Shown here in pieces: positions 14,376-35,890 of a stretch of DNA of 64,000 nt. Location of the stretch: positions 1-64,000 of the forward strand of contig JBDLIE010000001.1 in assembly GCA_039715015.1 (NCBI GenBank), read 5' to 3'. Source of the DNA: Thermodesulfobacteriota bacterium (GTDB lineage Bacteria > Desulfobacterota > Desulfobulbia > Desulfobulbales > SURF-16). A program made the translations under genes and the position numbers. Position 1 is the first letter of the stretch, and every line of letters starts with the position of its first letter. The notes beneath the pieces are model-generated. The model was given only the letters and a program-made list of their open reading frames with translations. It was not told the DNA's origin and did no database searches.

Positions 14376-15716
14376 TTAGAAATGGTACTGCAGGTAGACG
14401 GAGTTGTAATTGCTGCCGCCCTTGATGTTGCCGAACATGGATGAGCTGCCGAAGATACCGGAGCGGTGGTGGATGGAATAGCCGAGCCAGACATCGTCGA
14501 GGGCTGCCACCCCAAAGGTGTCACCGAGATCAAAATCCAGGGAGAAGTCGAGAAAGAGGAGCCATTTACTGGCCTCCAGCTCCTTGTCATCCATCTCCAC
14601 CTGTTCGATATAGCTGATCTCGGCGGCATAGGAAAGACCTTCGCCAATACCGAAGCGCCAGGTGAAGGGCCAGTCAAAGGTGGTGTAATGCTTGAAGGCC
14701 AGGACAAATTCCTGCCCTGATTTCTGGACCCCGGAATTCCAGTGCCAGACAAAACCAGGGGTCAGGTAGCTCTCAACCGCCATGCCCAGAAAATCATCGG
14801 CAAGGGGGTGACCGTAGAAGAATGAGGTGAGCTGGTTGTTGTCGTAATCCCGTTCCCGGTCAAAGACAACAATGTCAGCCAGGTCGGAGGGTGTTGCCCA
14901 GCCATGGGCAAGGCGGACGTATGGTTTGGCGTTGATGGCCGATTTACAGATGGTGCTGCTGCCGTTTTGGTAGCTCATGCCCAGGAAGATATTCTCCTGG
15001 AAATCATCCTCCACAAAAAAGGAGTCCCGGGCGTTACTGCCGAGCCAGGTGGCCTCCACAGAGCCAAGAAGAAAAACATCGTCAAAGAGGAGGTACCTGG
15101 CCTCAAGGCCAACACTGACATCCATGCCGGAGCCGATATCATCCACCCCCAGGCCATAGTAGTAATCGTTAAAGCGGCCATCCTTGAAACGCAGATTGAC
15201 GTAAGGATCCAGGCTTATTGGCCCACCGTCTATCTCCATGCCGGTGCGCCAGTTTGACGAGAGGCGCTGCCGTTCATCGGCCATGAAGTCCACCTCGAAA
15301 TAGAGGGGGTTCTGGGCCGGCTGATAGCGAAACTGCAGGCCCCAGTCGAGAACGTCGGTGTCGATGAGAGCGTCATAATCATCATCTGGGACATCAAAGA
15401 AACGCCAGCGGGCCAAGAGACGGAGCTGCCAATCTTCACGGCTCAGCAATTTAACACCACCCTCAAGGCCATCGAGAAACAGGTATTCATCCTCATAGTA
15501 GAACAGGGGGATTAAATCGTGGAGGGAGGAGTCGTCTCCTTTAAAAGGGATGGAGGCCATGCGAACTGCGAAGCCAATGCCCCATTTTTGCTCCTTGCAT
15601 TCAAGCACTGAAGGACTCTGCTCAGGCTTGCTAGCAACAGCCTCTTCAGCCTGAATAAAGGAGGGAAAGGCAAGCAGGACGGTCAGGAAGAAAAAACTTT
15701 TTATGGAAATTTTCAT
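14376..15716 (-). CDS. MipA/OmpV-family outer-membrane beta-barrel protein with a C-terminal extra barrel region
   Basis: Signal peptide, IPLFYYE...FLDGLEGG, FNDYYYG, alternating beta-strand pattern, HHRSG motif, terminal Phe (YLQYHF). Confidence 0.8.
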   Translation of the reverse strand: MKISIKSFFFLTVLLAFPSFIQAEEAVASKPEQSPSVLECKEQKWGIGFAVRMASIPFKGDDSSLHDLIPLFYYEDEYLFLDGLEGGVKLLSREDWQLRLLARWRFFDVPDDDYDALIDTDVLDWGLQFRYQPAQNPLYFEVDFMADERQRLSSNWRTGMEIDGGPISLDPYVNLRFKDGRFNDYYYGLGVDDIGSGMDVSVGLEARYLLFDDVFLLGSVEATWLGSNARDSFFVEDDFQENIFLGMSYQNGSSTICKSAINAKPYVRLAHGWATPSDLADIVVFDRERDYDNNQLTSFFYGHPLADDFLGMAVESYLTPGFVWHWNSGVQKSGQEFVLAFKHYTTFDWPFTWRFGIGEGLSYAAEISYIEQVEMDDKELEASKWLLFLDFSLDFDLGDTFGVAALDDVWLGYSIHHRSGIFGSSSMFGNIKGGSNYNSVYLQYHF

Positions 15717-19046: not shown

Positions 19047-19130
19047 GGGGTGAGGGAACAGTGGTCCTTTTCCGCCATCTTTCCTCAGCTGTTCTTGACA
19101 GGATTTCCATGGCCCCGATATAGTGGTGTG

Positions 19131-19991
19131 ATGTCTATGAAATGGAAGATACAACGGCTATTCATGGTGTTTTGCGCCATGTTTTTTCTGAGCGGCTGTA
19201 CCTCGCTGATGATTACTAGGGTGGTGAGCCCCACCGTCGAGAACCTGCAGAAACAGAAGGATGTTGATCTTGTCTGTGAGGGGGCCCCCTCTTTTCTGCT
19301 CATGATCGACAGTATGCTGACCTCAAATTCAGATGACACGGATTTACTTATTACCGCCACCCAGGCCTACGGCGCCTATATTGCCGCCCTTGATGTCTGC
19401 GGCCGTAAGGAGCGGGCCACCGTCCTCAGTGAAAAGTCCAGGGAGTATGGTCTTCGTCTCCTTGTCCAGGCTGGGGTCTGCAAGAGTTGTAAGGTGCCGG
19501 TGGATGCCATGCGCCAGAATCTCCAGAAGTTCGGTAAGTCCGATGTTCCCTCCCTTTTCTGGGGCGCCTATGGCTGGGCGGTCTGGCTCCAGTATCAATA
19601 TGGCTCCCCGGCAGCGCTCAGCGATTTTCTCCGGGTGGAGCAGATTATGTTACGGGTGGTGGAGCTTGATGAGGGATATTATCATGGTAGTGCCCATCTT
19701 TTTCTTGGTATGTATTACGGGGCACGATCAGCGATGTTGGGGGGCAAGCCGGAACAGGGAAAAGAGCATTTCAGGCGGGCTTTGGAGTTAAGTGAGCGTC
19801 AGCTCCTTGCCACCCATGTAGCCTACGCCCAGAGTTATGCCCGGACCGTTTTTGACCTTGATTTGTATAGGGATCTTTTGCATGAGGTGCTGGAATTCAA
19901 ACTGGAAGACAGGCCTGATCTCTATCTGGCCAATCAGGTGGCAAAAAGACAGGCCCGTCAACTTTTACAAGAGATGGAACTCTATTTCTAA
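19131..19991 (+). CDS. TRAP transporter TatT-component lipoprotein (TPAT system)
   Basis: Lipobox LSGC, TPR-like helical body, YYHGSAHLFLG...LGGKPEQGKEHFRRALEL; directly precedes a dctP-like gene. Start codon uncertain. Confidence 0.82.
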   Translation: MSMKWKIQRLFMVFCAMFFLSGCTSLMITRVVSPTVENLQKQKDVDLVCEGAPSFLLMIDSMLTSNSDDTDLLITATQAYGAYIAALDVCGRKERATVLSEKSREYGLRLLVQAGVCKSCKVPVDAMRQNLQKFGKSDVPSLFWGAYGWAVWLQYQYGSPAALSDFLRVEQIMLRVVELDEGYYHGSAHLFLGMYYGARSAMLGGKPEQGKEHFRRALELSERQLLATHVAYAQSYARTVFDLDLYRDLLHEVLEFKLEDRPDLYLANQVAKRQARQLLQEMELYF

Positions 19992-20001
19992 GGAGATTTT
20001 T

Positions 20002-21009
20002 ATGAGCCTCAGGGTGCGCGGGGTACAGCTTTTCATTATGCTTATGGTCCTGGCTTATGGGCAGGTCTGCTGTGCTGCGCCCAAATACCTCTTCAAGGTG
20101 GCCTCAGTGGCTCCGGATGGCAGTGTCTGGGCCCAGCATTTTCGAGATTTTGTCAAAGAGGTGGCGACAAAGAGCAACGGCGACATCGGTTTTCGGGTCT
20201 ACCTCGGCGGTGCTATGGGCGATGATCGGGCCATGTACCGGAAGATGCAGGTGGGCCAGCTCCATGGCGGCGGTTTTACCATGACCGGTATAGGCCCTGT
20301 GGTCCAAGATTTTAGGGTTATGGGTATTCCTTTTCTTTTTAACTCCTATGATGAGGTTGATCAGGTCCGTAAGGGGCTGAACGGTTCTTTTAAAAAGGCC
20401 TTTGCAGAAAAAGGTCTGGAGTTTCTCGCCTTCACTGAGGTCGGCTTTGTCTACGCCATGTCAACCTCCCCCATCACTACATTGCCGCAACTCCAGGCTG
20501 CTAAATGTTGGTTGCCTGAGGGAGACCCGGTGAGTGCCGAATTTTTTTCCTCCATTGGAGTTTCTCCCATCCCCCTCACCATTCCTGATGTCCTTACTTC
20601 TCTGCAGACCGGCATGATTAATACGGTTTTTAACGGGCTCTATGGCTCCATTGTTCTGCAGTGGTTTACTAAGGCAACATTTGTAACAGACATACCCTTT
20701 GGCTACGCCTACGGCGCCTTCCTCCTAGATCGCCGCAAGTTTGCCAGCATGCCTCCCCATTATGCGGAGATTGTCAGGGCTGCAGCCACCAGACATTTTC
20801 AGGCCTTGTTGGAAGATACCAGAAAGAGTAATTTTGAGTCACGGGATGTGCTCAAAGAAAATGGGGTGGCCTTTGTTAAACCTACCCCCGACTCCCTTGC
20901 TGAATTGATTGTCGGGCGAGATGACGCTGTTACCCGCATGCGCGGCAAGGCCTTTTCAAAAGAGATTTATGATGAGACCATCCGCCTTCTAAAAGAAAAC
21001 CGCCAGTAA
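20002..21009 (+). CDS. dctP: TRAP transporter substrate-binding protein (DctP/TatP)
   Basis: AGGAGA RBS, signal peptide, KVASVAPDGSVW, YLGGAMGDD, GQLHGG, DVLTSLQTGMI. Confidence 0.9.
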   Translation: MSLRVRGVQLFIMLMVLAYGQVCCAAPKYLFKVASVAPDGSVWAQHFRDFVKEVATKSNGDIGFRVYLGGAMGDDRAMYRKMQVGQLHGGGFTMTGIGPVVQDFRVMGIPFLFNSYDEVDQVRKGLNGSFKKAFAEKGLEFLAFTEVGFVYAMSTSPITTLPQLQAAKCWLPEGDPVSAEFFSSIGVSPIPLTIPDVLTSLQTGMINTVFNGLYGSIVLQWFTKATFVTDIPFGYAYGAFLLDRRKFASMPPHYAEIVRAAATRHFQALLEDTRKSNFESRDVLKENGVAFVKPTPDSLAELIVGRDDAVTRMRGKAFSKEIYDETIRLLKENRQ

Positions 21010-21073
21010 TCCGGCCTTGCCTGAAAAGCTATGGCCGTTGTTTTGATTGGCATGGACTTTTCTGTGGTGTGTC

Positions 21074-21604
21074 ATGACCTTCAATGTCTTTGTCAAGAAA
21101 ACAGGAACTCTCCTCCAGAGGTTTGAAGAGGGCTTTCTCTGTCTGCTGTTGTTGACCATGATTATCCTGGCCGTTGTCCAGATCATTCTGCGAAGTTTCT
21201 TTTCAGGAGGTTTTCTCTGGGCCGATCCTTTCTTACGTTATCTTGTTCTTTGGAGCGGCATGTTTGGCGCGGCGCTGGCCACCAAAAAAGGCAAGCATAT
21301 TGCCCTGGATGTTGTTTCCTATCTGGTTCCGGAACAGGTGCAGCCATGGCTGAAATGCCTCCTTGATTTCTTTTCCTTCCTGGTTGCTCTGCTACTTTTC
21401 TATGCAGCCATCATTTTTGTCAGAAATGAGGCGGAGTTTGGCGCCTCAGCTTTGCTTTCAATGCCGTCCTGGTGTTGGAATCTGGTTTTTCCCCTGGCCT
21501 TTGCTCTCATTGCCCTTCGCTTTTTGACTACCAGTCTGACCGATTTTCTCAGGCTGCTTGGCAAAAAAGAAAAGCTGATTACTCGAACAGGGCTGGGATC
21601 GTGA
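21074..21604 (+). CDS. dctQ: TRAP transporter small permease
   Basis: Four TM segments, QIILR...WADPFLRYLVLW...GAALAT...HIALD. Confidence 0.88.
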   Translation: MTFNVFVKKTGTLLQRFEEGFLCLLLLTMIILAVVQIILRSFFSGGFLWADPFLRYLVLWSGMFGAALATKKGKHIALDVVSYLVPEQVQPWLKCLLDFFSFLVALLLFYAAIIFVRNEAEFGASALLSMPSWCWNLVFPLAFALIALRFLTTSLTDFLRLLGKKEKLITRTGLGS

Positions 21605-22866
21605 CCTTTCTTAAGTTTAGTATTTTAGTGCTGGCCCTGCTCGGCACGCCGCTTTTTATCATCATCTCCGCCCTTGCCCTGTTCTCATTTTATAACGAGG
21701 GGATAGATATCTCTGTGGTGATTATTGAGATGTCGCGCCTGGCCGACACCCCGCTGCTTTTGTCGCTGCCACTCTTTATTTTTGCCGGAACCCTGCTCTC
21801 CGAAAGCGGTGCCCCGCAGCGCATGTTGCGCCTTTCGCAACTGCTGTTGGGCTGGATGCCAGGGGGGCTGGCTGTGGTTTCATTGGTGGTCTGCGCTATT
21901 TTTACGGCCTTTACCGGAGCCTCGGGGGTGACGATTTTTGCCTTGGGGGGGCTACTTGTGCCGGCCCTTCTCCAGGACAGATATTCTGAAAAATTTTCCC
22001 TGGGGCTCATCACCTCGTCAGGCAGCCTTGGGCTTCTCTTCCCGCCCAGCCTGCCCCTTATCTTGTATGGCGTCATCTCTGAATCCAGGATTGATCAGCT
22101 TTTTCTGGCCGGCATCCTGCCGGGGCTGCTCATGCTCGGCCTGCTGGTGGGTTACAGCATCAAGAAAAGCCCAAAACACAAAGGGAAATACCAGGCCCCT
22201 GCACAAAAGGAGATACTGGCAGGAATCCGTGACGCCGCCTGGGAGCTTCCCCTGCCTGTCATTGTCCTTGGTGGTATTTATGGAGGTTTTTTCGTGGCTG
22301 GCGAGGCAGCAGCGGTAACCGCCCTCTATGTTATCGTGGTCGAGGTCTTTATCAAACGCGATGTGCCCTTTGTTCGACTGCCAACAAGCATGATCCAGAG
22401 CATGATGCTCTTTGGCGGCATCCTGGTGATCCTGGCCGCCTCTATGGCATCAACCAATTATCTGGTTGATTTGCAGATCCCCTCCCGGATTTTTGAGTTT
22501 ATCAAGCAGTATATTGACAGCAAATACACCTTTCTTCTGCTCCTTAATATATTTTTGCTTATTGTCGGCTCCATGCTTGATATTTTTTCCGCCTTGGTTC
22601 TGGTGGTGCCGTTGATTGTTCCCATTGCCGAAGGTTATGGAGTCAATCTTATCCACCTGGGCATCATATTCTTGACCAATTTGCAGATCGGATATTGCAC
22701 GCCGCCGGTGGGTCTAAATCTCTTTTTAGCCTCATACAGGTTCGACAAACCGGTGGTTCAGCTTTATGCCGCCACCTTACCCTTCCTTCTGCTCTTATTG
22801 GTAACTCTGCTGCTTATTACCTACTTCCCCTTTTTCAGCCTCTTTCTTGTTGGATTGTGGGGTTGA
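21601..22866 (+). CDS. dctM: TRAP transporter large permease
   Basis: GTG start overlapping the dctQ stop; LPLFIFAG, FTGASGVT, SGSLGLLFPPSLP, LFLAGILPG, TPPVGLNLF. Confidence 0.92.
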   Translation: MTFLKFSILVLALLGTPLFIIISALALFSFYNEGIDISVVIIEMSRLADTPLLLSLPLFIFAGTLLSESGAPQRMLRLSQLLLGWMPGGLAVVSLVVCAIFTAFTGASGVTIFALGGLLVPALLQDRYSEKFSLGLITSSGSLGLLFPPSLPLILYGVISESRIDQLFLAGILPGLLMLGLLVGYSIKKSPKHKGKYQAPAQKEILAGIRDAAWELPLPVIVLGGIYGGFFVAGEAAAVTALYVIVVEVFIKRDVPFVRLPTSMIQSMMLFGGILVILAASMASTNYLVDLQIPSRIFEFIKQYIDSKYTFLLLLNIFLLIVGSMLDIFSALVLVVPLIVPIAEGYGVNLIHLGIIFLTNLQIGYCTPPVGLNLFLASYRFDKPVVQLYAATLPFLLLLLVTLLLITYFPFFSLFLVGLWG

Positions 22867-23934: not shown

Positions 23935-26607
23935 TTAGATGGCAAGCAGCCAGCGAATTTCTTTAATGAGAAGTTTAGCGTCAATGGGCTTACTAATGTA
24001 ACCATCTATTCCTTGGTCTAGGAATTTTTGACGATCTTCACGCATTGCATGGGCTGTGAGGGCAATAATGGGGGTGTGCTTGCCATGGTCCTTTTCAAAT
24101 TCTCGAATAAGGGCTGTGGCCTCAAGGCCATCCATGACAGGCATCTGAATGTCCATTAAGACAAGGTCAAAGGGTTGATCTTTAAAAGCTTCGATGGCTT
24201 GTTTGCCATTTTCCACAGTAACCACCTGGAATCCTTTGCTCTCAAGAAGGGTGGTGGTGAAAATCCGGTTGATTTCGTCATCATCAACGACCAGGACATC
24301 TGCAAAGTTGAAATCAAAATTGTCAGGTGAGGTGTTGGTGGGGGCCTCGCTGGCGCCGCCGCGGGCAGAGAGTGCAGTGTATATTTCTTCCTCACTTACA
24401 GGTTTGGTAAGAATTTCAGAAACGTTATGGTGGGGAAGGTCGTGGATGTTGATTTTGTCCAGCCTGCGGACCATGGGTATAATCCGGCAATTTTGATTTG
24501 CGGCCAGGGAAATGAGATCGCTTGTCTCCTTGTCAAGCTCCTCCGGGATTGCCAGGATGAGCGCGTCAAAATGTTTTTCGTTCATCTTTTTTACAGCATA
24601 GGCTGATGACGCCGCCGAATCAACCAGGACAGCGGTATTCTCAAGCATTTTGGCCAGGGCATCGAGACTTTGTTGGTTGGGTTCGACAACAAAGACCTGC
24701 AGGGGGGCAAGTTCTCTTGGGCAAGGTGTGGTGAAGAAACTATCGTCCTGCTTGTCTGGCTGCAGGACAACATGAAATTCAGAGCCAAGGCCTGGATTGC
24801 TCTCAACCCAAATTTCACCCTTCATAAGAGAGATGAGCTTGGCAGAAATACTTAAGCCAAGACCGGTACCGCCATATCGTCTGGTGGTGGCTCCTTCCCC
24901 TTGGTGGAAGGAGTCAAAAATTATGCGCTGTTTTTCTTTAGGGATTCCAATTCCAGTGTCGCGCACCACAAAGTGGAGAGGATATTGCCTCTCGTCTTTT
25001 TTGGTGGAAAGATTGGAAGACCAGGCTGTACCGATAGTTAATGATACAGAACCTTTTTTTGTAAATTTAATGGCATTGCCAATAAGGTTGATAAGGACCT
25101 GACGAATACGCAGCGGGTCACCCGCAAAGAGATCCGGCACCTCTTTGTCAATGCGGCATATCATTTCAAGGCCTTTTTCATGGCCTTCCAGGGCCAAAAG
25201 TTTCATGGTTTCATAGGCCATTTCCCGCAGCCTGAAATCAACATAGTCAAGCTCCAGCTTGCCGGCCTCGACTTTAGAGAAGTCGAGAATGTCATTAATA
25301 ACATTGAGTAAACGGGCGGCGCTTTTTTTCACCATGGTCAGCATCTTGCGCGGCTCTTTCTGAAGATCCATCTCCAGGACAAGGTCTGCGAGACCCAGAA
25401 TACCATTCATGGGGGTGCGTATCTCGTGACTCATATTAGCAAGAAAATCACTCTTCGCCGCATTGGCAGCTTCGGCCTCTTGGCGGGCAATGATCATCTG
25501 TTGATAAGTTTCTTCCAGGCGATCCATCATCCGGTTGAAGTCAAGACACATCTGCTCAACATCATCATAGTGGCCGTTTGCTGACTTTTTATAAACAGGG
25601 ATACGCAGGTGAAGGTTGGCATCGCTTTCAGTCACTTTACGAAGAATGTCTATGAGTCTGTTGATCTGGTTGAAAATACGGCGCTTGAGTGAGATGTAAA
25701 GAAAGATGGAAATAACGGTGAAGCCCAAAAAAGGCCAGAAATTACTGGCAATAAGCCGCCTGCGTGCCGTGATGAACCAGGTGTCTTCAACAGCGACAAA
25801 AAGATTTGCCACAGTCATTCCTGCACTATCGTTAAGAGAAGATGGCCGGGCAAAATAGTTTTTTCCTTGAACGGTAACTTTTTGGCCTTCGATCCAGGGC
25901 ACTGCATTGTCGGGAAAGCTGGAGAGAATACAATGGTTATGCTCATCAAAAATGGCAAAATCCACATCAAGCATGGCAGCCATTTTTTGGGCAAGGGGCT
26001 GATTGTTGTTGATGATGGAAATAAGAACAACAAAACCCATGGGGTCACCTATGTCATCAGTGAGGGTGACCAGCGATTGAAGACCTATAAATGAAGATTC
26101 ATCAGCGGCGGCGGGGCCAGAGGAGACAAAATCGCCCATGATTGCAGCTGAAATTTTAGTCGCTGTCAGTTTTGGAGAGGGTGTAAAGGCCTTGGCTAAG
26201 AGTTCGGAATAAGAGCTGTGCAGAGCGCGGTGCCGAAGTTGAAAACTATTTGAGGTAAGGAGGTTGAAATTCTCATCGTAGAGAAGAACCATATCAAGAT
26301 TATGGCGCGAAGAGATCTCTTGCAGCATAACCTTGAGAGGGGCGATGTCGTCATAAGTTAGAAATTTAACAATTTTTTTATTTTGTTCACGAACAATACC
26401 TGTGACAATTTTAAGTTTTTCCAGCTCGTTGACAAGAATGGCATGGGCTGTTTCTGACTTGCCTTCAAGTTGCTGGCCAACTGCCTCTCGAACTCTATTT
26501 TGCTCTTTAATGGTGGTATAGAAAACATTGACGGCAATAACCGCCACCAGCAAGGTAAAGGCCAGGGCAATGTTCCAGTTGAGGCTTTTTGAGTTAAGGG
26601 AGAACAT
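23935..26607 (-). CDS. Hybrid sensor histidine kinase (periplasmic sensor, HAMP, HisKA, HATPase, degenerate REC, REC)
   Basis: Two TM segments around a periplasmic region, FLANMSHEIRTPMNG, NLIGNAIKFT, DTGIGI, GGTGLGLSIS, C-terminal VLMDIQMPVMDG...SKP. Confidence 0.95.
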   Translation of the reverse strand: MFSLNSKSLNWNIALAFTLLVAVIAVNVFYTTIKEQNRVREAVGQQLEGKSETAHAILVNELEKLKIVTGIVREQNKKIVKFLTYDDIAPLKVMLQEISSRHNLDMVLLYDENFNLLTSNSFQLRHRALHSSYSELLAKAFTPSPKLTATKISAAIMGDFVSSGPAAADESSFIGLQSLVTLTDDIGDPMGFVVLISIINNNQPLAQKMAAMLDVDFAIFDEHNHCILSSFPDNAVPWIEGQKVTVQGKNYFARPSSLNDSAGMTVANLFVAVEDTWFITARRRLIASNFWPFLGFTVISIFLYISLKRRIFNQINRLIDILRKVTESDANLHLRIPVYKKSANGHYDDVEQMCLDFNRMMDRLEETYQQMIIARQEAEAANAAKSDFLANMSHEIRTPMNGILGLADLVLEMDLQKEPRKMLTMVKKSAARLLNVINDILDFSKVEAGKLELDYVDFRLREMAYETMKLLALEGHEKGLEMICRIDKEVPDLFAGDPLRIRQVLINLIGNAIKFTKKGSVSLTIGTAWSSNLSTKKDERQYPLHFVVRDTGIGIPKEKQRIIFDSFHQGEGATTRRYGGTGLGLSISAKLISLMKGEIWVESNPGLGSEFHVVLQPDKQDDSFFTTPCPRELAPLQVFVVEPNQQSLDALAKMLENTAVLVDSAASSAYAVKKMNEKHFDALILAIPEELDKETSDLISLAANQNCRIIPMVRRLDKINIHDLPHHNVSEILTKPVSEEEIYTALSARGGASEAPTNTSPDNFDFNFADVLVVDDDEINRIFTTTLLESKGFQVVTVENGKQAIEAFKDQPFDLVLMDIQMPVMDGLEATALIREFEKDHGKHTPIIALTAHAMREDRQKFLDQGIDGYISKPIDAKLLIKEIRWLLAI

Positions 26608-27383
26608 TATTTGAAGTCGCGGTTACCGGTGCCAGCAAATGATCTGGGTTCTTTCTGGGCCACTGGACGATTTTCTTGTTTCCAGCGCTCAATACCCCCT
26701 TTGAGAACACCCTCCACCTCATACCCTTTGGTGATAAGAAATTTGGCGGCAATGGTCGATTGTTTCATTGCCCAGTCGGTAATGAGAATAGGGGTTTTTT
26801 TTGGTAATTGTGCCACCATCTCTTCAAGGTAGAGTAAGGGAATGTGTCTGCTGTTTTTCAGGAAATGATTGTTCCGGGAGAAGTTGTTGGGGCGAACATC
26901 AAGAACCGAGATTTTTGAAGATGCAATGAGAGTAGCCACCTTGGCCGGGGAAAGGCGAGAGATCTTGATCGCCGCATATTTCTTGCTGGTGGTGGTGGGG
27001 TAATTGAAGCTACGCCATTCAGGAATGCCGCCGGTAAAGCGATAGACGTTTTTATATCCTTTTGTCGCTGCGAAAACTGCAGCTCGTTTCGAATAGAGTC
27101 AGCGAAAACCCATGCAGTGAAAGATGAGAGAGGTCGAAAGGTCTGCAGGTAATTTGTCCGATGTTTTCAATTTGTTAAGTGGAATATTTATGGAGCCCGT
27201 GATGTGATGGAGGTCATACTCCACCCTGCTTAAAACATTAATGACCAGGACATTCTCTTTTTCGAGCATATTTTTGACAACAGGAGCGGATATCTCCTTA
27301 TAGGGATTTGCCCAGCCCTTGTCTGGAGAAAGAAGCAGGGCAATGGCAAAAAGGGTCATGGCAAAAAAAATGTTTCTCCCCAT
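26607..27383 (-). CDS. Exported tandem-rhodanese selenoprotein (258 aa, Sec at residue 95)
   Basis: ORFs 27099-27383 and 26607-26939 are one frame broken only by TGA at 27101-27099. Read-through gives IFHCMGFR-U-LYSKRAAVFAATKGYKNVYRFTGGIPEW, completing a rhodanese domain. Signal peptide present; SECIS-like hairpin 15 nt downstream. Confidence 0.85.
27067..27083 (-). promoter_or_regulatory. Candidate bacterial SECIS hairpin of the rhodanese gene
   Basis: GCUGC-AGUUUUC-GCAGC begins 15 nt after the in-frame UGA; G near the 5' side of the loop. Confidence 0.6.
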
Positions 27384-27554
27384 ATGTTCTCCTTGTTTTT
27401 TTATTAAGGGGGTGATTTCAGAAGGTTACACCCCAGACGTATGATACGCATTTTGCTCCCTTGAAAACAAGTAAAGAAAAGAAGGGCAAGATATCGGCAA
27501 GAAGCGAAACAGTTTGGGGTGAAAATGCCGGCTTTGCAAAGGGATGGCGTAGGG

Positions 27555-28232
27555 CTAAATGCCGCTCTGGGAATGGAGCTGGTCGCGGAGACGAACGATT
27601 AATTCACTTGTTGATTCGCAGGAGAGTTTTTTCATGATATTGGCCCGGTGGACCCGGACAGTCTTGGGACTGATAAAAAGAACCTGGCCGATCTTGGCAG
27701 TGTCAAAGCCTTGGGCGATGAGGTGGCTTATTTCCTGTTCCCGCGGGGTAAGGGTCTTGCTTTCATCCTCGGTTGCAGCTGGGTCCTTGCCGGTGATGAT
27801 ACAGTCAATGATCTTCGAAGATGCTGTGGGGCTTAGGTGGGTTTGGCCGCTGTGAACTTGCCTAATGGCAGTTTCAAGCTCCGTGGCCGGATCAAATTTA
27901 AGCACAAATCCTTTTGCTCCGGCCTGCATGGCCTGCTGGATGAAGTCTGGATTCTCATGCATGGTGTACATGACAATCTTGGTACGAGGGGAGATTGATT
28001 TGATCCGCGGAATCATCTCGATACCGCTTAAACCCTTCATGGTGATATCAAGCACAGCGACGTCAGGCTTGGTTTTGTCAATGACACGAAGGCCTTCAAT
28101 TCCGTCTCCGGCCTCGCCAACCACCTTGATGTCCCTTAGTTCCGAGAGGGTGCTGATAATGCCCTGCCGGAGAAGATGATGATCATCTACAAGGACAGTA
28201 GTAATAGGGCTTTCTGGAGGGGATTCAGTCAT
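27555..28232 (-). CDS. NarL/LuxR-family response regulator
   Basis: VLVDDHHLLRQG, VLDITM, GAKGFVLK, LTPREQEI...ISPKTVRVHRANIMKKL. Start placed at MTESPP. Confidence 0.93.
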   Translation of the reverse strand: MTESPPESPITTVLVDDHHLLRQGIISTLSELRDIKVVGEAGDGIEGLRVIDKTKPDVAVLDITMKGLSGIEMIPRIKSISPRTKIVMYTMHENPDFIQQAMQAGAKGFVLKFDPATELETAIRQVHSGQTHLSPTASSKIIDCIITGKDPAATEDESKTLTPREQEISHLIAQGFDTAKIGQVLFISPKTVRVHRANIMKKLSCESTSELIVRLRDQLHSQSGI

Positions 28233-28414
28233 CTTTTCTTGTTGATTGTATTGTCCAGGCCCTGAGCCTGTTCGTTTTTCTTGACAACTTTGCCGATGCC
28301 CCCTCATTTGCTGACTTCTGAAGAGCTAATAATAGTCTAAGTGTCAACAGTCTGCGAGAGAAAGATAGGTTAAAAAAAACCATTGCCACTGTTAATTCAT
28401 ACTGTGATGCCGCT

Positions 28415-30031
28415 TCACATAGCTTTCATGGCCCGAACATCCATTGCCTCTCCGGAGTAAATAGGCAGGCGGATGGACATGGTGGTTCCCCGGCCTTCTC
28501 TGCTGACGACATCGATTCTGCCATTATGCCGTTTTATAATACCATAGATGACGGAAAGACCCAGACCAGTTCCTTCCACCTCATCCTTTGTGGAAAAAAA
28601 GGGCTGGAAGATGGCATCGCGATGTTCCTTCTTGATTCCTTTTCCGGTGTCCTTAAAATCAATTTGGACCATGTCACCAACCTGTTGGGTGGTCAGGGTG
28701 ATTGATCCGCCAGCCATGCCCATGGCCTGGGTGGCGTTGTTGAAAAGGTTGAGTACCACCTGTTTAATCTGATCAGAGACCCCGATAATGTCGGGCAGCA
28801 TCGGGGCATAGTTGCAGTGAATTGTAATGTTGTGTTGGGCAAAGTTTTTGTTGCACAGGAGGATCATGCTGTCGAGAACCTCGTGAAGATTGACGGCCCC
28901 GGGTTTACCGGTGGTGGGACGGTTAAAATCTTGGAGGTTTTGGATCAGCCCCTTGATACGGTCGCATTCGTCAATGGCCATGGCTGCCATTTCACCCTCG
29001 CCTTTGGCAAGGCGGCCACGCATGAGCATGTTGACGATGAACAGGCGGATGGCAACAATGGGGCTGCCGAACTCATGGGCAATGCTGGCCGCCAATTTAC
29101 CAATGGCGCTTAATTTCTCCGCGTGGAGGAGCTGGTCATATGTTTTTTTGAGCTCGTCGGTTTTCTCCTTAACTCTGCCCTCCAACTGGGCATGGGCCTT
29201 TTGGAGGGCAACACCCACCCGTTGTTTCTCAGCTATCTCCTCCTGCAGTTGGGTGTTTGCATCTTCCAGGTCCTGGGTCCGCTCCAGGACCTCTGTCGCA
29301 AGAATAGTACGATGGTTGGCCAGCTCCAGGTTCATTTTTTCCATATCTTTCTGCTGGGTCTGATCGTCAAAAAGCAGGACGCCAAAGATAGTGATGAGAA
29401 AGACGGTATAGAGAAACTCGCCGATGAAGATGTTGTGGATGACCTCCTGGTGGACGGCATAATCGTGGATGCCGCCCAGGAAGGTGCAGAGCAGGGCCAA
29501 GCGTGAGAAAAGGCCGTGGGCCCCCTTGGTCTCAACAGTGAGAAGACGAAAAAGCGTATAGCCGCAGAAGAGAATGATAATAGCGGCATAGAGACTGAAG
29601 ACAGGCCCGGGCGTGCCAAAACGGTAGTCAAAGTCAATGCCGTAGAAAGTAACGGTTTTTAGGGTGACCGGGCCCTTTAAAAAAAGATCTGTGGTGACAG
29701 TGACAGCAATAAGACCGGTGATGATCAGAAAGAGACGGGGGATGCTGCTCGACTCAAAATTGATATCATAGAGGATAGAGAGCCAGGCCGTAAAGCCAAG
29801 CATGAGGACAAAAATTCTAGCTCTATGCAGAAAGAGGGCGCGTGCCTCGTCAATGGGAAAGGAAAGGAGAAGACCTAAAAAAACGTAGAGACAACCGCCA
29901 AAGGTTGCGATGCAAAAGTAGGTATAGTTATTGAGCTTCTTATGAACAATAAACACTTTACCGAGATGATAGAGCGAAAAGCAAAAGAGGACGGCGGTGA
30001 TGTGTGATAGTATGAGCTGGTAGGTGTTCAT
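28415..30031 (-). CDS. Sensor histidine kinase with a 7-TM N-terminal domain
   Basis: About seven hydrophobic helices, coiled coil, EKLSAIGKLAASIAHE, QVVLNLFNNA, DTGKGI, PFFSTK, GTGLGLS. Confidence 0.92.
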   Translation of the reverse strand: MNTYQLILSHITAVLFCFSLYHLGKVFIVHKKLNNYTYFCIATFGGCLYVFLGLLLSFPIDEARALFLHRARIFVLMLGFTAWLSILYDINFESSSIPRLFLIITGLIAVTVTTDLFLKGPVTLKTVTFYGIDFDYRFGTPGPVFSLYAAIIILFCGYTLFRLLTVETKGAHGLFSRLALLCTFLGGIHDYAVHQEVIHNIFIGEFLYTVFLITIFGVLLFDDQTQQKDMEKMNLELANHRTILATEVLERTQDLEDANTQLQEEIAEKQRVGVALQKAHAQLEGRVKEKTDELKKTYDQLLHAEKLSAIGKLAASIAHEFGSPIVAIRLFIVNMLMRGRLAKGEGEMAAMAIDECDRIKGLIQNLQDFNRPTTGKPGAVNLHEVLDSMILLCNKNFAQHNITIHCNYAPMLPDIIGVSDQIKQVVLNLFNNATQAMGMAGGSITLTTQQVGDMVQIDFKDTGKGIKKEHRDAIFQPFFSTKDEVEGTGLGLSVIYGIIKRHNGRIDVVSREGRGTTMSIRLPIYSGEAMDVRAMKAM

Positions 30032-30078
30032 TCCGTTTTCAAGAGTAAACAGTGGTAAGCTGGAAGTCAACAGGAGAC

Positions 30079-31650
30079 ATGGGTAGAGTGACTGATTTTG
30101 CATGGAAGAACAGGGGATTGCTGCCTGTTCTCCTCTGTGTCCTCATGGGGGTGACAGGGTGTGGCACCAAGGTTGTTTCATTTAAGACAACCTATGCCAC
30201 TGGTGAGTGCCAAGAAATGTGGATGGCCCTCGAAAAGATCATCCATAATAACAAGGTGGCCGATAATACAGCGGTGCGCGTTCAGGGGTATCCATATCTG
30301 CGGAGCAGCAGATATCTGCAGGCCCTTGCAGAGCGTGTTGAAAGCAGGGAGGAAGAGTTCTTTGTCCTTGAAGAAATGCGGCTGCTGGATCTCGAAAAAA
30401 GAGCCCTGGAACTGAGCAGAATTCCTGAGGCGGCTCTCGAAAATTCTCTTGGCAAATGGCCTGGGCTGAACCATCCCTCTCTCCCTCAAAAAATAGCCAG
30501 CTGTTCGCAGAACTTTTTGAGCGATGATAGGCAGAGTGAAGAATTTTTTGGCCATGTCAAAAACGGCATAGATTTGGATAGGGACTACTCCCTGTGGCTA
30601 AGAAGTGTGGGACTTTATCCAATTACCTCCCTGGTGGTGGAGTATGTCGCGGAAAATGCACGGGAGGAAATGGTTGCCCAACTCAGCACTCCAATGAGTG
30701 GAGAAGAGTTGCTCACCTTCAGGCCCGCGCCAACAGCCACCACCTCCCATCGTAACCTGAAGGAGATTGTACGCAACAGTCGCAAGAATTCACTGCTTTC
30801 ATTGAACCTTCATGACGTGGATTTGCAGAGCCTGGCCCAGGAATTTGCGCCTTTGCTGACAATTGTCAAGGGCGCCGACCAAGACAGGTTTGGTAAGATT
30901 ATTAACAATAATGGCAGGTTTGCAGTTGATGGTAGCGAGCCGGTTGTCTATTATTATTTCAGTCAAACCTTTGTCCAGGGGATTCCTGCCCCACAGATAA
31001 ACTATGTTGTTTGGTTTTCTGAACGTACGGATCCTGCCCCCTGGTTTGAACGAGGCAGAATTGACGGCCTCACCTTTCGGGTTACCCTGAATTGGGCTGG
31101 CCAGCCTGTTTTTGTAGATGTTATCCAGAACTGTGGCTGCTATCATTTTGTCATGACCAATAATGAATATGTGGCTGGGCAGCAGGACCCTGTTGCCGGT
31201 TTCAAGCCTTTTGTGAACGGCGAGTTCTCACAATTTTCAGGCAATAAACGACTGCAACTTAAAATAAACAGCGGCAGACATCAGCTAGGTCATGTTTCTG
31301 CGGCCCTTCCTGGGAAATCACAGCCGAGCTATAGACTTTTGCCTTACACTAATTTGGAGTACTTTGGGGAAGAGGGTCAGGTAACAAGCTTTTTTGATCA
31401 GCAAGGCCTGGTGGCTGGCACAGAGCGCTTTGAAAGGTTTTTCCTCTTTCCCATGGGGATCCCGAAAGTCGGGGCAATGCGCCAGCGAGGCCGCCAGCCA
31501 ATTACCCTTGTCGGCAGGGCCTATTTTGATGACCCACATCTTTTTGATAATGTTTTTTCCTACCGCTCACCTCTCCCGGCCTTAAAGGTGTTGCTGCCGC
31601 CTAAGACGGGAAAACAGGACAAGATCACCGGTGGTGGCGACAAGGACTAA
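30079..31650 (+). CDS. Hypothetical lipoprotein
   Basis: AGGAGA RBS, lipobox-like VTGC, long open frame with an NCGCYH motif; no function recognised. Confidence 0.75.
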   Translation: MGRVTDFAWKNRGLLPVLLCVLMGVTGCGTKVVSFKTTYATGECQEMWMALEKIIHNNKVADNTAVRVQGYPYLRSSRYLQALAERVESREEEFFVLEEMRLLDLEKRALELSRIPEAALENSLGKWPGLNHPSLPQKIASCSQNFLSDDRQSEEFFGHVKNGIDLDRDYSLWLRSVGLYPITSLVVEYVAENAREEMVAQLSTPMSGEELLTFRPAPTATTSHRNLKEIVRNSRKNSLLSLNLHDVDLQSLAQEFAPLLTIVKGADQDRFGKIINNNGRFAVDGSEPVVYYYFSQTFVQGIPAPQINYVVWFSERTDPAPWFERGRIDGLTFRVTLNWAGQPVFVDVIQNCGCYHFVMTNNEYVAGQQDPVAGFKPFVNGEFSQFSGNKRLQLKINSGRHQLGHVSAALPGKSQPSYRLLPYTNLEYFGEEGQVTSFFDQQGLVAGTERFERFFLFPMGIPKVGAMRQRGRQPITLVGRAYFDDPHLFDNVFSYRSPLPALKVLLPPKTGKQDKITGGGDKD

Positions 31651-32060: not shown

Positions 32061-32864
32061 CTAAATTGTATTTTTTTTAACAAGCTCGGCGCTCCGCGCT
32101 GGGATCCAACATTGACGGCCATCAGCAAGTTCAATCTGAAACCAATACCCCTGTTTTTTTAGAAGAACAAACTCGGTGCCACTATGGAGAGGTGTGGCAA
32201 AGGCGGGCTGGTAGTTGCGACCATCACCCTGCCGGGCCATGATCTCAGAGGCGACAATGACCCCCTCTCGGGCAGGCGGCTTGACCTTGTCCATACCCAC
32301 GGAAGTGGAGGCCACTAAGGTGGCAAGAAGAAGGGTGGCCGGGATCCAGCTCGGCATGGTGATTTTTTTGAGATAGAAGAGGGACGCTGCCAGCCAGAAA
32401 GCAACGTAGAGGCCGAGGAAAATCTGAGTACGCAGGGTAAGTGGTAGACTGCGATGCAGATTTAAACTGGCCAGGGACGTTTCATTGTCTGCCCTGACAA
32501 ACTGATCCTGGCGTTCGGAGCGGACAAAGGCCAGGTTATGCTGGATGTTGGTGTCGCTTGCCAGCTCTTTTTCAGCTCTGCGGTAATTGACCATGGCCCG
32601 GCCTAGATCTCCCAGGCGATAGTAGGTGTTGCCAATATTATAGGCCAAGCGGGCATTTGGCTGGCTACGCTGAACCTGCTCGTAGCGCAGCAAAGCCTGG
32701 CGGTAAAGGTTTTGAGCCGTTTCTGCGGCTTTTTCGTCACTGGCCTGATGGAAAAGGGCATGGGCCTCGGCGACAATCTCTTGATCCGTCTGAGCCTGGG
32801 CCACGGCGGCTGGGCTGAAGATAAATATGCAAAGGGTGACAACAAAGGAGAGTGATTTCATCAC
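32061..32864 (-). CDS. batE: BatE-like TPR/SH3 protein
   Basis: AYNIGNTYYRLGDLGRAMVNYRRA, two TM segments, C-terminal LHSGTEF...WFQIELADGRQCWIP. Confidence 0.82.
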   Translation of the reverse strand: MMKSLSFVVTLCIFIFSPAAVAQAQTDQEIVAEAHALFHQASDEKAAETAQNLYRQALLRYEQVQRSQPNARLAYNIGNTYYRLGDLGRAMVNYRRAEKELASDTNIQHNLAFVRSERQDQFVRADNETSLASLNLHRSLPLTLRTQIFLGLYVAFWLAASLFYLKKITMPSWIPATLLLATLVASTSVGMDKVKPPAREGVIVASEIMARQGDGRNYQPAFATPLHSGTEFVLLKKQGYWFQIELADGRQCWIPARSAELVKKNTI

Positions 32865-34690
32865 AGCACCTCGCTCATTTTTTGGGCAACCCGCAGCAGG
32901 TTTTTTTTGTCGAGAACATGGCCTAAGCCACCATAGAGGGCAGCTTCACCCTGATTGAAAATATCTTCAACATCCCTGGTAATATCCTGGGCTTCCCTGT
33001 GCCTGGCAAGAAGACAAAGGACATCGCCCCTGGTGATGGAACGGGCTGGCCGTCCTAGTTTGTCGCCAAGAAAATCAAGCCAGGCCTCAAATACTTCTTC
33101 ATCCTCACAGCCTCGTAGTTTCTTGCGAAGCCGTCTGTAGGCCAGCCTGCGGCGATGTCTCAGTTCTCTGGTGTCGTCATGTTGATAGTGGTCAATAGAG
33201 AACAGCAGGCCAAAGAGCAGGGGGGGCAGCAAAAGGATGGCGAGGTGGAGCAGGGTGCCGTTTCCTGCCGGTGCGGCAACATCAATTTTTTCATAGTTAG
33301 GACGGATATCCTGTTGGGCCTCACTGACAATGGCGGCATTCAAAGAGGCGGCAATGTCTTCTTTGCCAGCGCCAAGGGCATCTTGGGCCGTGATTATTCT
33401 GGTGGGATGGACAGTGAGGCCGATCTCCTTGCTGCGGGCCACCTCGTAGCGCTTTGTCTCAGGGTTGAAGAAAGGCAGACTGAGACCGGGGATCTTTGTC
33501 ACCTGATCATGGCTGGCCCGGATGGTGGTGGTGAAAGTCTTGATACCGGCTGAGAGGTTGCTTTGCGGTTTCTCTGAGGCGGGCTTAAAATCTTGGCTGG
33601 CCAGGGTGGCCTCCAGGGGTGGCAGGCTGAGGTTATCGACAAAGGTGCCACCAATAGTCACCGTCAAATTAATGGGGTCTCCAACGTTAACGGCAGTGGG
33701 GTTGGCCTCGGTAGTCATGGTGTAGTGCCCCACCAAGCCGCTGAAATGGGGAGGCCTGTCCTGACTGGGAAGTTCAAGGACTTCAAGGTTGAGAGCATTT
33801 GCCGGGATGACCACGGTACGATAGATCTTGCGGCGCCCTGAGCCGAACATATCAAAGGGGTCCCTGCCGAACTGGCCACGTCGTGACTGGCTGTAGCCGT
33901 CAAAGGCGTTAATGGCCAGAGTTCCCTGGGGAAGGCTGATTTTGCCCGGGCTTCTCGGGATAAGGGTATGACGAAAGTTGAGAGCAACATAGTCCCGGCC
34001 ATCATGTTTTACTGCCTTTTTTTGAGCGGTAACACTCTGTCCTGCCACCTCGATCTCCACGAGCTCTATCCGTCCTCGGGGTTTGCTTGGCTGGAGGCCA
34101 AAGAGCTCAAAACGGCTGTCGCTGAATATGGGAAGGTTGAATTCAAAACCCTTAAGATCCTGACCTATGAGCCAGGTGGTGGTCATGATGATGGGCTCAC
34201 CCACATAACAGCGTTCTTTAGAAAGCCTCACCAGCAGCTTGAAGTCGTCGCTCTCCTCCGGTTCTTTTACCATCATGGTGATAGGCGCGGTACTATAGGT
34301 GGCGCCGTCAATGGTCACCGGAATGGCCGGAATGGTTAGCACCCCTGTCTTGCTGGCGGTGAGCAGGTATTGATAGACGTAGCTTAAGGTCTTGGTGGTC
34401 TGCACCTTGCCGTTTAGGGAAATCTGGTAGCTCTGGCTGCGGTTGGTGCCGCCCTGGGGTTCCACCTGAAAATCTTTGAGTGTGATGGAAGGCTGCCCTG
34501 TGGCCTCAGCACCCCTAATCTCAAGCTGCAGAGTGAAGGGCTGCCCCACATAAATTTCGTTACTTGCCACCTGGGCCTGGACCGAGATGGCGTCAGCAGC
34601 CTTGACCAGGGAAGGGAGAAGAAGGGGCAACAGGGCCACTGTCAAGATGTGGAAAAGATGTTTTGCCATGGTTTTTCTATACGATGACAT
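32861..34690 (-). CDS. batD: BatD-family protein
   Basis: Signal peptide, repeated YVGQP/YVGEP/VGDPI beta-sandwich units, PFFNPETKRY, C-terminal TM. Confidence 0.85.
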   Translation of the reverse strand: MSSYRKTMAKHLFHILTVALLPLLLPSLVKAADAISVQAQVASNEIYVGQPFTLQLEIRGAEATGQPSITLKDFQVEPQGGTNRSQSYQISLNGKVQTTKTLSYVYQYLLTASKTGVLTIPAIPVTIDGATYSTAPITMMVKEPEESDDFKLLVRLSKERCYVGEPIIMTTTWLIGQDLKGFEFNLPIFSDSRFELFGLQPSKPRGRIELVEIEVAGQSVTAQKKAVKHDGRDYVALNFRHTLIPRSPGKISLPQGTLAINAFDGYSQSRRGQFGRDPFDMFGSGRRKIYRTVVIPANALNLEVLELPSQDRPPHFSGLVGHYTMTTEANPTAVNVGDPINLTVTIGGTFVDNLSLPPLEATLASQDFKPASEKPQSNLSAGIKTFTTTIRASHDQVTKIPGLSLPFFNPETKRYEVARSKEIGLTVHPTRIITAQDALGAGKEDIAASLNAAIVSEAQQDIRPNYEKIDVAAPAGNGTLLHLAILLLPPLLFGLLFSIDHYQHDDTRELRHRRRLAYRRLRKKLRGCEDEEVFEAWLDFLGDKLGRPARSITRGDVLCLLARHREAQDITRDVEDIFNQGEAALYGGLGHVLDKKNLLRVAQKMSEVL

Positions 34691-34693
34691 GGG

Positions 34694-35890
34694 TTACCAG
34701 TCCTTGCCGCTGGTGGGGCGCTGTTGTCGCATGCGCAGACGGCGCATTTCGTGGAGGGCTTTTTCGCCATCAAGAATGTCGGCCAGAGTGGCGGCGGTTT
34801 TGTCGGCCTGCTGGTCCTGCTCGTCATCTGCTTGCTGGCCACTGGCAGGGGCGTTCTCTTCATGCCCTTTAGGGGTGTCACTGTTGACAGCCGGGGCTGG
34901 GGATTGTTCCGCTCCAGCCTCTTTTTCCGTATCCAGATTGGCTGCCATCTTGCTCAGGCTGTCAGCCGCCTGCTGCTGGTGTTCCTGGGCCTGGTTAAGG
35001 TCTCCTTGGTTAAGAGACTCTTCCGCTTTTTTCTGGGCGTCGATGGCCTCCTCCAGCTGCTTGCTGAGATTATCTTGGTCTTGCCCCTCTTTGTTCAAGT
35101 CCTCTTTGATTTTTTCCAGGGCCTGGCGTACGTTCTGTTGCTGGGCTGCCATATCTTGCATTTGCTCGTTGCTGGGACCGTTTTGGTTGCCGCCCGAGCT
35201 GTTCTCCTTACTCTGGTCAGCCATATCCTGCTGCTGTTGTCCAGCTTCGTTAAGTTGCTCCTGAAGGTCCTGCTGGTCATTTTTGGGGCCAGACTGGTTT
35301 TGCTGTTGCTGGCCTTGACCCTGTTGGCCTGCCGGCGGCTGCTGGTTAAGCTTGGCAAATTCCTTACGGAAATCCTCAATGCCCTTGCGGGCGGCTTTGA
35401 GGCCGGGGTCGTTACGCAGGGCCTGCTGGAAAGCCTGGTTGGCGGCCAGCAGCTGTTCTCTTTTTGGGGCCAGCTTTTGATTTTTCCCGGCCTGGGTCAG
35501 CAGAGTACGGCCTTTATTGTATTCCGTCCTGGCCCTGGTTTTTGGATTTTTGTCTGCGGCGGCACTGGCTGTAAAGGCCTGGGACGCCTCGCTAAAACTC
35601 TTTAGTTTGTAAAAAGCTGTACCCTGATTGTAGAGGGCCTTGGCGTCTTCCGGTTTTTTGGCCACCGCCTGGCTGAAAAGATCCAGGGCCTGCTCATAAT
35701 TGCCCTTTCCATAGGCTTTAACACCTTGGCGGTGCAGAGAGTCGATACTTGCTGCCAGGCCCAAGGCAGGGAAAAAAGCCATGGCAAGCGTCCCAGAGAG
35801 ACACAGAGATATAAGGTTTAAGAATGGTAAGCTTCGGCTCTCTGGGTGGGAACTAAAAACAGCTTGTCTGGCAGCAAATTTAACAATCAT
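34694..35890 (-). CDS. batC: BatC-like TPR protein with Gln-rich tail
   Basis: TPR motifs (ALYNQGTAFYK), Q-rich low-complexity region, terminal KDW. Confidence 0.8.
   Translation of the reverse strand: MIVKFAARQAVFSSHPESRSLPFLNLISLCLSGTLAMAFFPALGLAASIDSLHRQGVKAYGKGNYEQALDLFSQAVAKKPEDAKALYNQGTAFYKLKSFSEASQAFTASAAADKNPKTRARTEYNKGRTLLTQAGKNQKLAPKREQLLAANQAFQQALRNDPGLKAARKGIEDFRKEFAKLNQQPPAGQQGQGQQQQNQSGPKNDQQDLQEQLNEAGQQQQDMADQSKENSSGGNQNGPSNEQMQDMAAQQQNVRQALEKIKEDLNKEGQDQDNLSKQLEEAIDAQKKAEESLNQGDLNQAQEHQQQAADSLSKMAANLDTEKEAGAEQSPAPAVNSDTPKGHEENAPASGQQADDEQDQQADKTAATLADILDGEKALHEMRRLRMRQQRPTSGKDW

Follow-up and report, generated by a model that had tools for sequence, protein, structure and literature searches.

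Several bacterial receptors take their input from a separate protein of the periplasm. In LuxP-LuxQ, the autoinducer-2 receptor of Vibrio, the gene for the exported partner lies directly before that of the hybrid kinase, and in TorT-TorS, as in the pairing of maltose-binding protein with Tar, a separate periplasmic protein triggers a membrane sensor. In sulfur biology, the sulfane-sulfur sensors SqrR, CstR and BigR are cytoplasmic repressors, ThsS and TtrS read oxyanions in the periplasm, and Sud is a periplasmic polysulfide carrier; to our knowledge there is no settled account of bacterial sensing of polysulfide or elemental sulfur outside the cytoplasm. Here we describe a two-gene locus of a Thermodesulfobacteriota bacterium (GenBank assembly GCA_039715015.1, contig JBDLIE010000001.1, positions 1 to 64,000 of the forward strand; this whole 64,000-nucleotide (nt) stretch is called the window), in which the gene of an exported selenocysteine (Sec) rhodanese directly precedes that of a hybrid histidine kinase with a LuxQ-like periplasmic domain. 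A functional partnership of the two products is very probable. That the rhodanese is the dedicated, LuxP-like periplasmic input subunit of the adjoining sensor, reporting sulfane sulfur by Cys/Sec chemistry, is the reading that we favour, tentatively and with slightly less than even confidence.

Among described systems, ThsSR and TtrSR are likewise two-component systems reading periplasmic sulfur compounds (PMC5408782; papers are cited by PMC number from the portions of their text available to us). They differ in that a PhnD-like domain is fused to the kinase, and rhodanese has 0 occurrences in the available text of that paper. Sud (PDB 1QXN) and Geobacter ExtH (PMC5877670) are, like the protein described here, exported rhodanese-fold proteins of sulfur respirers, whereas their genes adjoin reductases or cytochromes and no receptor. 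The accessible text of PMC3543383, PMC5877670 and PMC13510729 mentions no pairing of a rhodanese with a sensor, and in that of a 2026 review (PMC13188914) the terms 'sensor', 'two-component' and 'periplasm' have 0 occurrences and a role in signal reception goes unmentioned. Our literature searches, beyond whose reach most subscription papers lie, found no paper on such a pairing. The strict two-gene sensing module, for which we found no earlier description, would be a new form of accessory-protein sensing.

The features of the locus, with the evidence for each in brackets, are as follows (aa, amino acids; TM, transmembrane; SECIS, selenocysteine insertion sequence).

26607..27383, minus strand: exported tandem-rhodanese selenoprotein of 258 aa, with a C90-x4-U95 loop in domain 1 and Asp203 in domain 2 (read-through, Pfam, model, homologues)
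27389..27393, minus strand: AGGAG ribosome-binding site ahead of the rhodanese ATG (sequence reading)
27309..27383, minus strand: predicted cleavable signal peptide, residues 1-25, ending GWA and without a lipobox Cys (hydropathy)
27114..27116, minus strand: Cys90, the canonical rhodanese catalytic position (alignment)
27099..27101, minus strand: in-frame UGA, predicted Sec95 (homologues, Sec machinery)
27067..27083, minus strand: SECIS-type hairpin, +19 to +35 from the UGA; 5 bp and a 7-nt loop starting AG in the window copy, 7 bp in the family consensus (folding, covariation)
26605..26609, minus strand: TAATG stop/start overlap of rhodanese and kinase, local and no family feature (sequence reading)
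23935..26607, minus strand: 890-aa hybrid sensor kinase with TM1, periplasmic domain, TM2, HAMP-like linker, HisKA, HATPase_c, a pseudo-receiver without phospho-Asp and a receiver, and with no HPt (Pfam, hydropathy)
25753..26520, minus strand: periplasmic domain, a LuxQ-like double Cache and conserved partner of the rhodanese (model, fold match, profile)

The rhodanese gene and its UGA codon

Genetic code table 11 splits the rhodanese gene into open reading frames of 94 and 110 aa. A preliminary description of this DNA had joined them into one gene with two rhodanese domains, and reading TGA as U does yield a single 258-aa protein (27383-26607, minus strand) with one TGA only, at codon 95 (27101-27099), in the context FHCMGFR-U-LYS. 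Pfam Rhodanese (PF00581) matches it in two stretches (86 bits against a cut-off of 22), the fold matches of its model (predicted local distance difference test, pLDDT, 91) are rhodaneses, and the solved structure 1QXN (Sud) is matched at E 4.7e-8. The UGA does lie in the active-site loop of domain 1, as had been proposed; alignment with the FYC of solved rhodaneses refines this, in that Cys90 is the residue at the canonical catalytic position (89 of 92 genes have Cys here, 3 have Gly) and Sec95 follows five residues later to form a CxxxxU pair. Domain 2 reads ILITDW, which places D203 where a catalytic Cys would stand, again as first described. Export is borne out by the hydrophobic N-terminus (best 10-residue hydropathy 2.73) ending GWA, and a hydrophobic N-terminal stretch is present in all 34 of the 34 Sec homologues scored; both observations come from hydropathy and not from a dedicated signal-peptide predictor.

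Codon 95 was compared in every gene of at least 39% identity that covers it, in a set of 100 loci giving 111 matches, 92 of them distinct. TGA stands in 85 of these genes and a Cys codon in the other 7, over 39-100% identity, and the genome holds selC (tRNA-Sec) together with selA, selB and selD above profile cut-offs. Downstream of the UGA the family shares a 7-bp stem within 17 nt (+19 to +35). In an alignment of 84 distinct rows it is 97.3% paired and has changed on both sides 32 times, 25 of these two-sided changes falling on a single pair of synonymous third positions. Slid controls are at most 51% paired and 0 of 500 shuffles reach the stem, a count that is no probability because the 84 rows are related. 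Mean folding energy of the SECIS stretch differs between Sec genes (-9.9 kcal/mol) and the 7 Cys genes (-4.4). The window's own hairpin does not rise above chance (z -0.6 to -1.8 in three of four folds, +0.4 in one), and 427 of 1000 synonymous recodings fold as well as the native sequence. Since the window copy is weak by itself, support for a SECIS element comes from the family alignment; the SECIS-like hairpin of the preliminary description stands as a covarying family stem.

From these comparisons we conclude that the gene is a real selenoprotein gene, with UGA95 as its predicted Sec codon. A pseudogene produced by a nonsense codon or an assembly error, the reading for which the unremarkable local hairpin speaks, has a negligible chance and was rejected on the recurrence of TGA, or else Cys, throughout the 92 genes, the covarying stem and the complete Sec machinery. 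The one DNA sequencing run compared, which may be the assembly's own source, covers the region and has no difference at the TGA. Most database matches are deposited as fragments of 130-170 aa, and for this reason the pairing with the sensor is hidden from annotation-based screens.

Sec rhodaneses have been catalogued in five forms (PMC13188914) and are also treated in PMC1976440; the former lists WP_010941598.1 as a representative of form 1 (UxxS). The motif of form 1, UxxS in a PF00581 domain, is found here as ULYS, and the spacing of the two redox residues matches that of form 5, TsoB (UxxxxU, PMC13188914). From both forms the protein differs in its two domains, dead domain 2 and plain signal peptide. 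Databases of the type of BSepDB, for bacterial selenoproteins (PMC13326102), may already list family members as form 1. Scores fall below the curated NCBIfam cut-offs of rhodanese_LYCAU (form 3; 64.4/115), TsoB (58.8/805) and PQQ_CXXCW (32.8/128). Tandem rhodaneses of the bovine rhodanese/SseA type have an inactive N-domain and the catalytic Cys in the C-domain. The order is reversed here, with C90/U95 in domain 1 and D203 in domain 2, and the whole-chain root-mean-square deviation to tandem thiosulfate sulfurtransferases is ~16 A.

The adjoining sensor and its pairing with the rhodanese

The 890-aa product is, as first described, a hybrid histidine kinase with a periplasmic sensor region: by hydropathy, two TM segments (13-31, 285-303) flank a periplasmic domain of 255 residues. 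Its ATG (26607-26605) overlaps the rhodanese TAA (26609-26607) and has no clear ribosome-binding site before it. The window's sensor domain lies below every Pfam cut-off; family members, and the neighbours of the domain in a language-model atlas, match Cache families weakly. Its model is a double Cache (pLDDT 87), and in a Foldseek search LuxQ periplasmic domains take the first six places (TM-score 0.51-0.64), two of them in complex with LuxP. Against the LuxQ_Vibrio profile the kinase scores 331 bits of a 1200 cut-off, all from the kinase core.

The likeness to LuxP-LuxQ (PDB 1ZHH, 2HJ9), for which the partner-sensor complex is solved, concerns the gene order and the tandem PAS/double-Cache periplasmic domain. 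Differences are that the partner here is a tandem rhodanese selenoprotein and LuxP a periplasmic binding protein, that identity is 11-16%, and that the input here is probably covalent chemistry on the partner. TorT-TorS and Tar differ in their binding-protein folds, non-covalent ligands and helical sensor domains. By analogy the module may work like LuxP-LuxQ or TorT-TorS, while belonging to neither.

Rhodanese and sensor domain were sought in a class sample of 301 genomes (rhodanese at E <= 1e-45, sensor profile A3 at E <= 1e-6). The rhodanese is present in 26 genomes and the sensor domain in the same 26. Each of the 29 sensor matches has a rhodanese gene directly before it, one match being at a contig end, and the profile has no match between E 1e-63 and 1e-6. 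Across 83 distinct loci the sensor is next in 69 and absent in 5, with 6 offering <450 nt of room and 3 cut inside the gene; where at least 450 nt follow, 69 of 74 loci carry the sensor next on the same strand, and the adjacency noted in the preliminary description is in this sense conserved. Four further loci gave the sensor in 3, the fourth being at a contig end. Of the 5 loci without a sensor, L148 has a broken gene running into the receiver tail of a kinase, either a deletion remnant or a misassembly, and the other four (L144, L146, L150, L151) belong to one nested clade considered below. Apart from the sensor, no neighbour gene is constant around these loci. Those with names are metagenome-assembled genomes of Desulfobacterota, the closest titled Desulfurivibrionaceae (68%), and one distant sensor cluster has a member named Gammaproteobacteria. 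The module is patchy, for in a phylum-wide sample the sensor occurs in only 3 of 401 genomes, one match being weak (G360, E 1.8e-9) and without an adjoining rhodanese. In several genera (L065, L066, L067, L071-L076, L089-L092) a single sensor is preceded by a tandem of Sec rhodanese genes that have diverged, CMGxxU followed by CLSxRU, and a convergent HAMP-GGDEF gene lies behind the sensor.

Behind the same periplasmic domain the output varies. At 46 loci the H-box is SHEIRTP (25), SHELRTP (14), AHDLNN (3), AHDFNN (3) or SHDLK (1), and locus L004 has a SpoIIE phosphatase instead; 86 cluster representatives were found at E <= 1e-10, and the 72 long ones, taken as protein sequences, include 2 SpoIIE and 2 GGDEF proteins. 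Genes downstream of the loci include HPt, REC-GGDEF, REC-kinase and OmpR-type regulators. Pairwise identities, compared over non-independent pairs, correlate with a Spearman coefficient of 0.58 between rhodanese and periplasmic domain (46 loci; 0.34 over 890 distant pairs), 0.47 between the periplasmic domain and its own kinase core (distant pairs 0.19) and 0.32 between rhodanese and kinase core (distant pairs -0.04). Because outputs are swapped and the rhodanese tracks the periplasmic domain over the core, the inherited unit is the rhodanese plus the periplasmic domain. An ordinary sulfurtransferase merely co-transcribed with, or regulated by, the kinase would account for the kinase-less copies of one lineage (see below), and neighbours can be co-inherited; it is nevertheless very unlikely, as the rhodanese stays with the periplasmic domain while transmitter and surrounding regulators change, and the sensor domain never occurs without the rhodanese in the class sample.

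Translational coupling, which the preliminary description had made part of the system, turns out to be local: an ATG lies within 10 nt of the rhodanese stop in only 14 of 55 scorable loci (14 of the 69 loci have no scorable ATG), and the median gap is 34 nt. The same count bears on the suggestion that the module senses selenium, through selenium chemistry at the loop or through kinase translation dependent on UGA read-through via TAATG. The overlap in the window and the want of a clear kinase ribosome-binding site would agree with it, but contact or near-contact is confined to those 14 loci and the Cys orthologues (L103-L106, L134, L140) keep the same sensor, so that selenium is unsupported as the signal and we regard the suggestion as highly improbable. 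Selenium-dependent kinase synthesis may be a local side effect.

Structure prediction of the rhodanese with the periplasmic domain, a check suggested at the outset, passed weakly. The score is 0.53 for the natural pair of L103, a Cys homologue, and the best of 3 controls reached 0.00; runs agreed in at least 96% of contacts, and partner pLDDT was at least 88. The mark applied is reached by 116 of 157 solved pairs and 2 of 215 mismatched pairs; support is weak because 18 of the 157 solved and both mismatched pairs reach it at <=0.60. We know of no solved rhodanese-Cache complex that the prediction could recall. All told, we take direct docking of the rhodanese on the Cache domain to be more likely than not. 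An obligatory relay from Sec to a sensor Cys, also considered, is not supported, since the domain has no invariant Cys: even at the best column only 43 of the 62 rows have one, the window has Gly there, and 5 rows are without Cys altogether.

Sister clades and neighbouring genes

The sensor-linked genes form one clade (100/99) that includes a Cys subclade; its sisters are a pair of CLGRKU Sec genes and a CKGxxC clade. The two CLGRK-U genes, on metagenome contigs, lie directly after Tll0287-HAMP membrane proteins (L156:94-2017; L158:3-1505). The CKGxxC clade has 36 matches in 33 of the 301 genomes, and among the 30 loci shown, 20 lie directly before a methyl-accepting chemotaxis protein (MCP), 8 directly after an NtrC-type regulator and 2 elsewhere. 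The MCP-linked clade has its parallel in Tar with maltose-binding protein.

The rhodanese could be a docked input subunit reporting how oxidised the periplasm is (by O2, peroxide, metal or quinone-linked oxidants) through a Cys90-Sec95 redox switch. The CxxxxU/C pair persists across the family and the sister clades, the MCP of several sister loci has a MauE-family membrane protein next to it on the downstream side, the CLGRKU copies follow Tll0287-HAMP proteins, and Sec95 is kept in the 3 genes that have lost Cys90, an observation that also suggests Sec as the reactive residue. The fold, however, is that of a rhodanese and not of a thioredoxin, and a thiol switch needs no rhodanese loop; we consider this reading rather unlikely.

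Further details of such relatives, and other rhodaneses with in-frame TGA codons, were recorded in passing. At the 20 chemoreceptor-linked loci (L220-L237, L239, L241; L095:8472-11211) a CKGPKC/CLGPKC rhodanese lies directly before a helical-domain chemoreceptor, often with a MauE-family membrane protein next, and the combination is a candidate sulfur chemotaxis receptor. In Desulfocapsa sulfexigens, three of the nine rhodanese genes are, by their locus tags, no more than five tags away from an MCP (PMC3739170), with a chance of ~0.002 in our own simulation from locus tags, not sequences; the available text of that paper makes no remark on it. Sister rhodaneses with CKGPG-U or CKGVIC end a multiheme cytochrome c/cytochrome b operon (L242:1580-5645; L243-L246). 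In the host genome (G000), a multi-domain rhodanese lipoprotein with an in-frame TGA (FYCGGPT-U-GMS; L047:5225-6550, minus strand, C19) is divergent from a run of genes that starts from a PAS kinase and an NtrC-type regulator and is closed by the CKGxxC copy of this genome, a Cys paralogue with CKGIRC. A third exported tandem-rhodanese paralogue (FYCNADTC; C1, L048:5159-9639, plus strand), outside the window, has an end that overlaps the beginning of the next gene, which encodes a 4HB-HAMP hybrid kinase of 1218 aa with an HPt. The genome further carries a LYCAU-type Sec rhodanese (C2:56851-57273, minus strand) and a selD with its own in-frame TGA (C51:11990-12904, plus strand).

Two regulatory genes lie upstream of the module on the same strand.

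27555..28307, minus strand: NarL-type regulator, a local neighbour only, outside the conserved module (Pfam, locus comparison)
28415..30103, minus strand: 562-aa multi-TM histidine kinase, a local neighbour only (Pfam, hydropathy, locus comparison)

The preliminary description had considered both as possible members of the module and the kinase as a 7-TM protein. They recur in one other genome only (L001/L018, counted once because the matches are identical), and the hydropathy scan gives the kinase 6 TM segments. A promoter and terminator scan of the minus strand between the regulator and the rhodanese gave no site. Divergent from the upstream kinase, and also present in L001, is a 532-aa predicted lipoprotein with no Pfam or NCBIfam match (30052-31650, plus strand). 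The window also contains a MipA-domain outer-membrane protein (14376-15716, minus strand), a TRAP transporter with a T component (19050-22866, plus strand) and a cluster with vWA- and TPR-like genes (32061-37934, minus strand), which we take to be Bat-type and which also flanks the module in several relatives.

Proposed function of the rhodanese

As an input subunit of the adjoining sensor, the rhodanese would let sulfane sulfur (polysulfide, S0-derived persulfide, perhaps thiosulfate) react with Sec95/Cys90, and the loop, by turns free, loaded with sulfur or bridged between Cys and Sec, would act as a switch. Its state would shift the two-lobed rhodanese on the docked Cache domain, which would relay the shift via TM2 and HAMP to change kinase activity, with no covalent link; domain 2, catalytically dead, is probably structural or a docking surface. 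Given docking, sulfane sulfur is a likely signal, in view of rhodanese chemistry and of a host that bears dsrA.

Several observations weigh against this proposal. The 26 carrier genomes are concentrated in 10 of 71 genera and do not count as independent, and the sensor profile was built from the very loci scored. Five Sec copies (L144, L146, L150, L151, L153), dispersed within one metagenome and forming one nested clade, have no downstream sensor; at L153, with 437 nt downstream, an unrelated gene is next. No rhodanese-sensor fusion was found among 66 longer matches in a weak search that scored 8000 candidates. The complex score lies in the weak band and belongs to a Cys homologue 46% identical, not to the window pair. 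LuxQ leads the ligand-binding dCache domains by <10-fold (E 3e-9 against 2e-8), a narrow lead that leaves the Cache pocket free, perhaps, to bind a small molecule itself. The 2 remaining CKGxxC loci and three TGA-bearing relatives stand behind multiheme cytochrome c and cytochrome b genes. Finally, among 13 full-length database homologues, which have Cys (8), Leu (2), Phe (2) or Trp (1) at position 95, 5 thus carry W, L or F there, 3 of these 5 with Gly at 90 as well (Gly90 in 4 of 13 overall).

The cytochrome-operon subclade, with no adjoining receptor gene, fits an enzyme, and the rhodanese might be a periplasmic enzyme that makes or removes a Cache-bound small molecule (e.g. sulfide, sulfite or thiosulfate from polysulfide) without stable docking. 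A diffusible product would explain how rhodaneses that are related come to be paired with sensors of unrelated fold (double-Cache, helical MCP, 4HB kinase), and a Cys stands on a Cache strand in 43 of 62 sensors. One-to-one retention, matched divergence and the weakly positive complex prediction all argue the other way, and docking on Cache as well as on helical receptors is known among binding proteins (LuxP; maltose-binding protein with Tar). We judge an enzyme of this kind unlikely.

The homologues lacking a redox residue at 95, some with Gly90, indicate that these residues are lost in some strains. The Leu95 form falls in a 90% cluster whose 12 members include 7 fragments of 132-133 aa and one protein with Cys, and this looks like strain-level loss; the genomic context of the L/F variants was sought in 81 genomes around G700, where all 7 matches have TGA. 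That a full-length gene survives where position 95 has become L or F and position 90 Gly would suit a folding, modifying or structural subunit of a sensor whose ligand is unrelated to sulfur, which the strict pairing fits equally. It is at odds with Sec or Cys at position 95 in 92 of the 92 genes from loci, and since 5 of 62 sensors are without Cys and the window has Gly at the semi-conserved column, there is no universal thiol target for a maturation subunit. Such a role is quite unlikely.

Beyond this locus, exported CxxxxU/C tandem rhodaneses may form an unrecognised class of receptor subunits, in which covalent chemistry with sulfane sulfur would produce a conformational signal that is delivered through unrelated sensors, a generalisation that is possible but more doubtful than the proposal for the locus itself. 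The sensors would comprise LuxQ-like Cache domains on kinases, phosphatases and probably diguanylate cyclases, helical chemoreceptors and 4HB kinases. As a two-gene system of soluble domains, with a sister version on chemoreceptors in the same genomes, the module is open to direct testing. If the wider reading is true, a selenoprotein would act in bacterial signal reception, and sulfur-disproportionating and sulfur-oxidising bacteria would sense polysulfide or elemental sulfur by this means, chemotaxis included.

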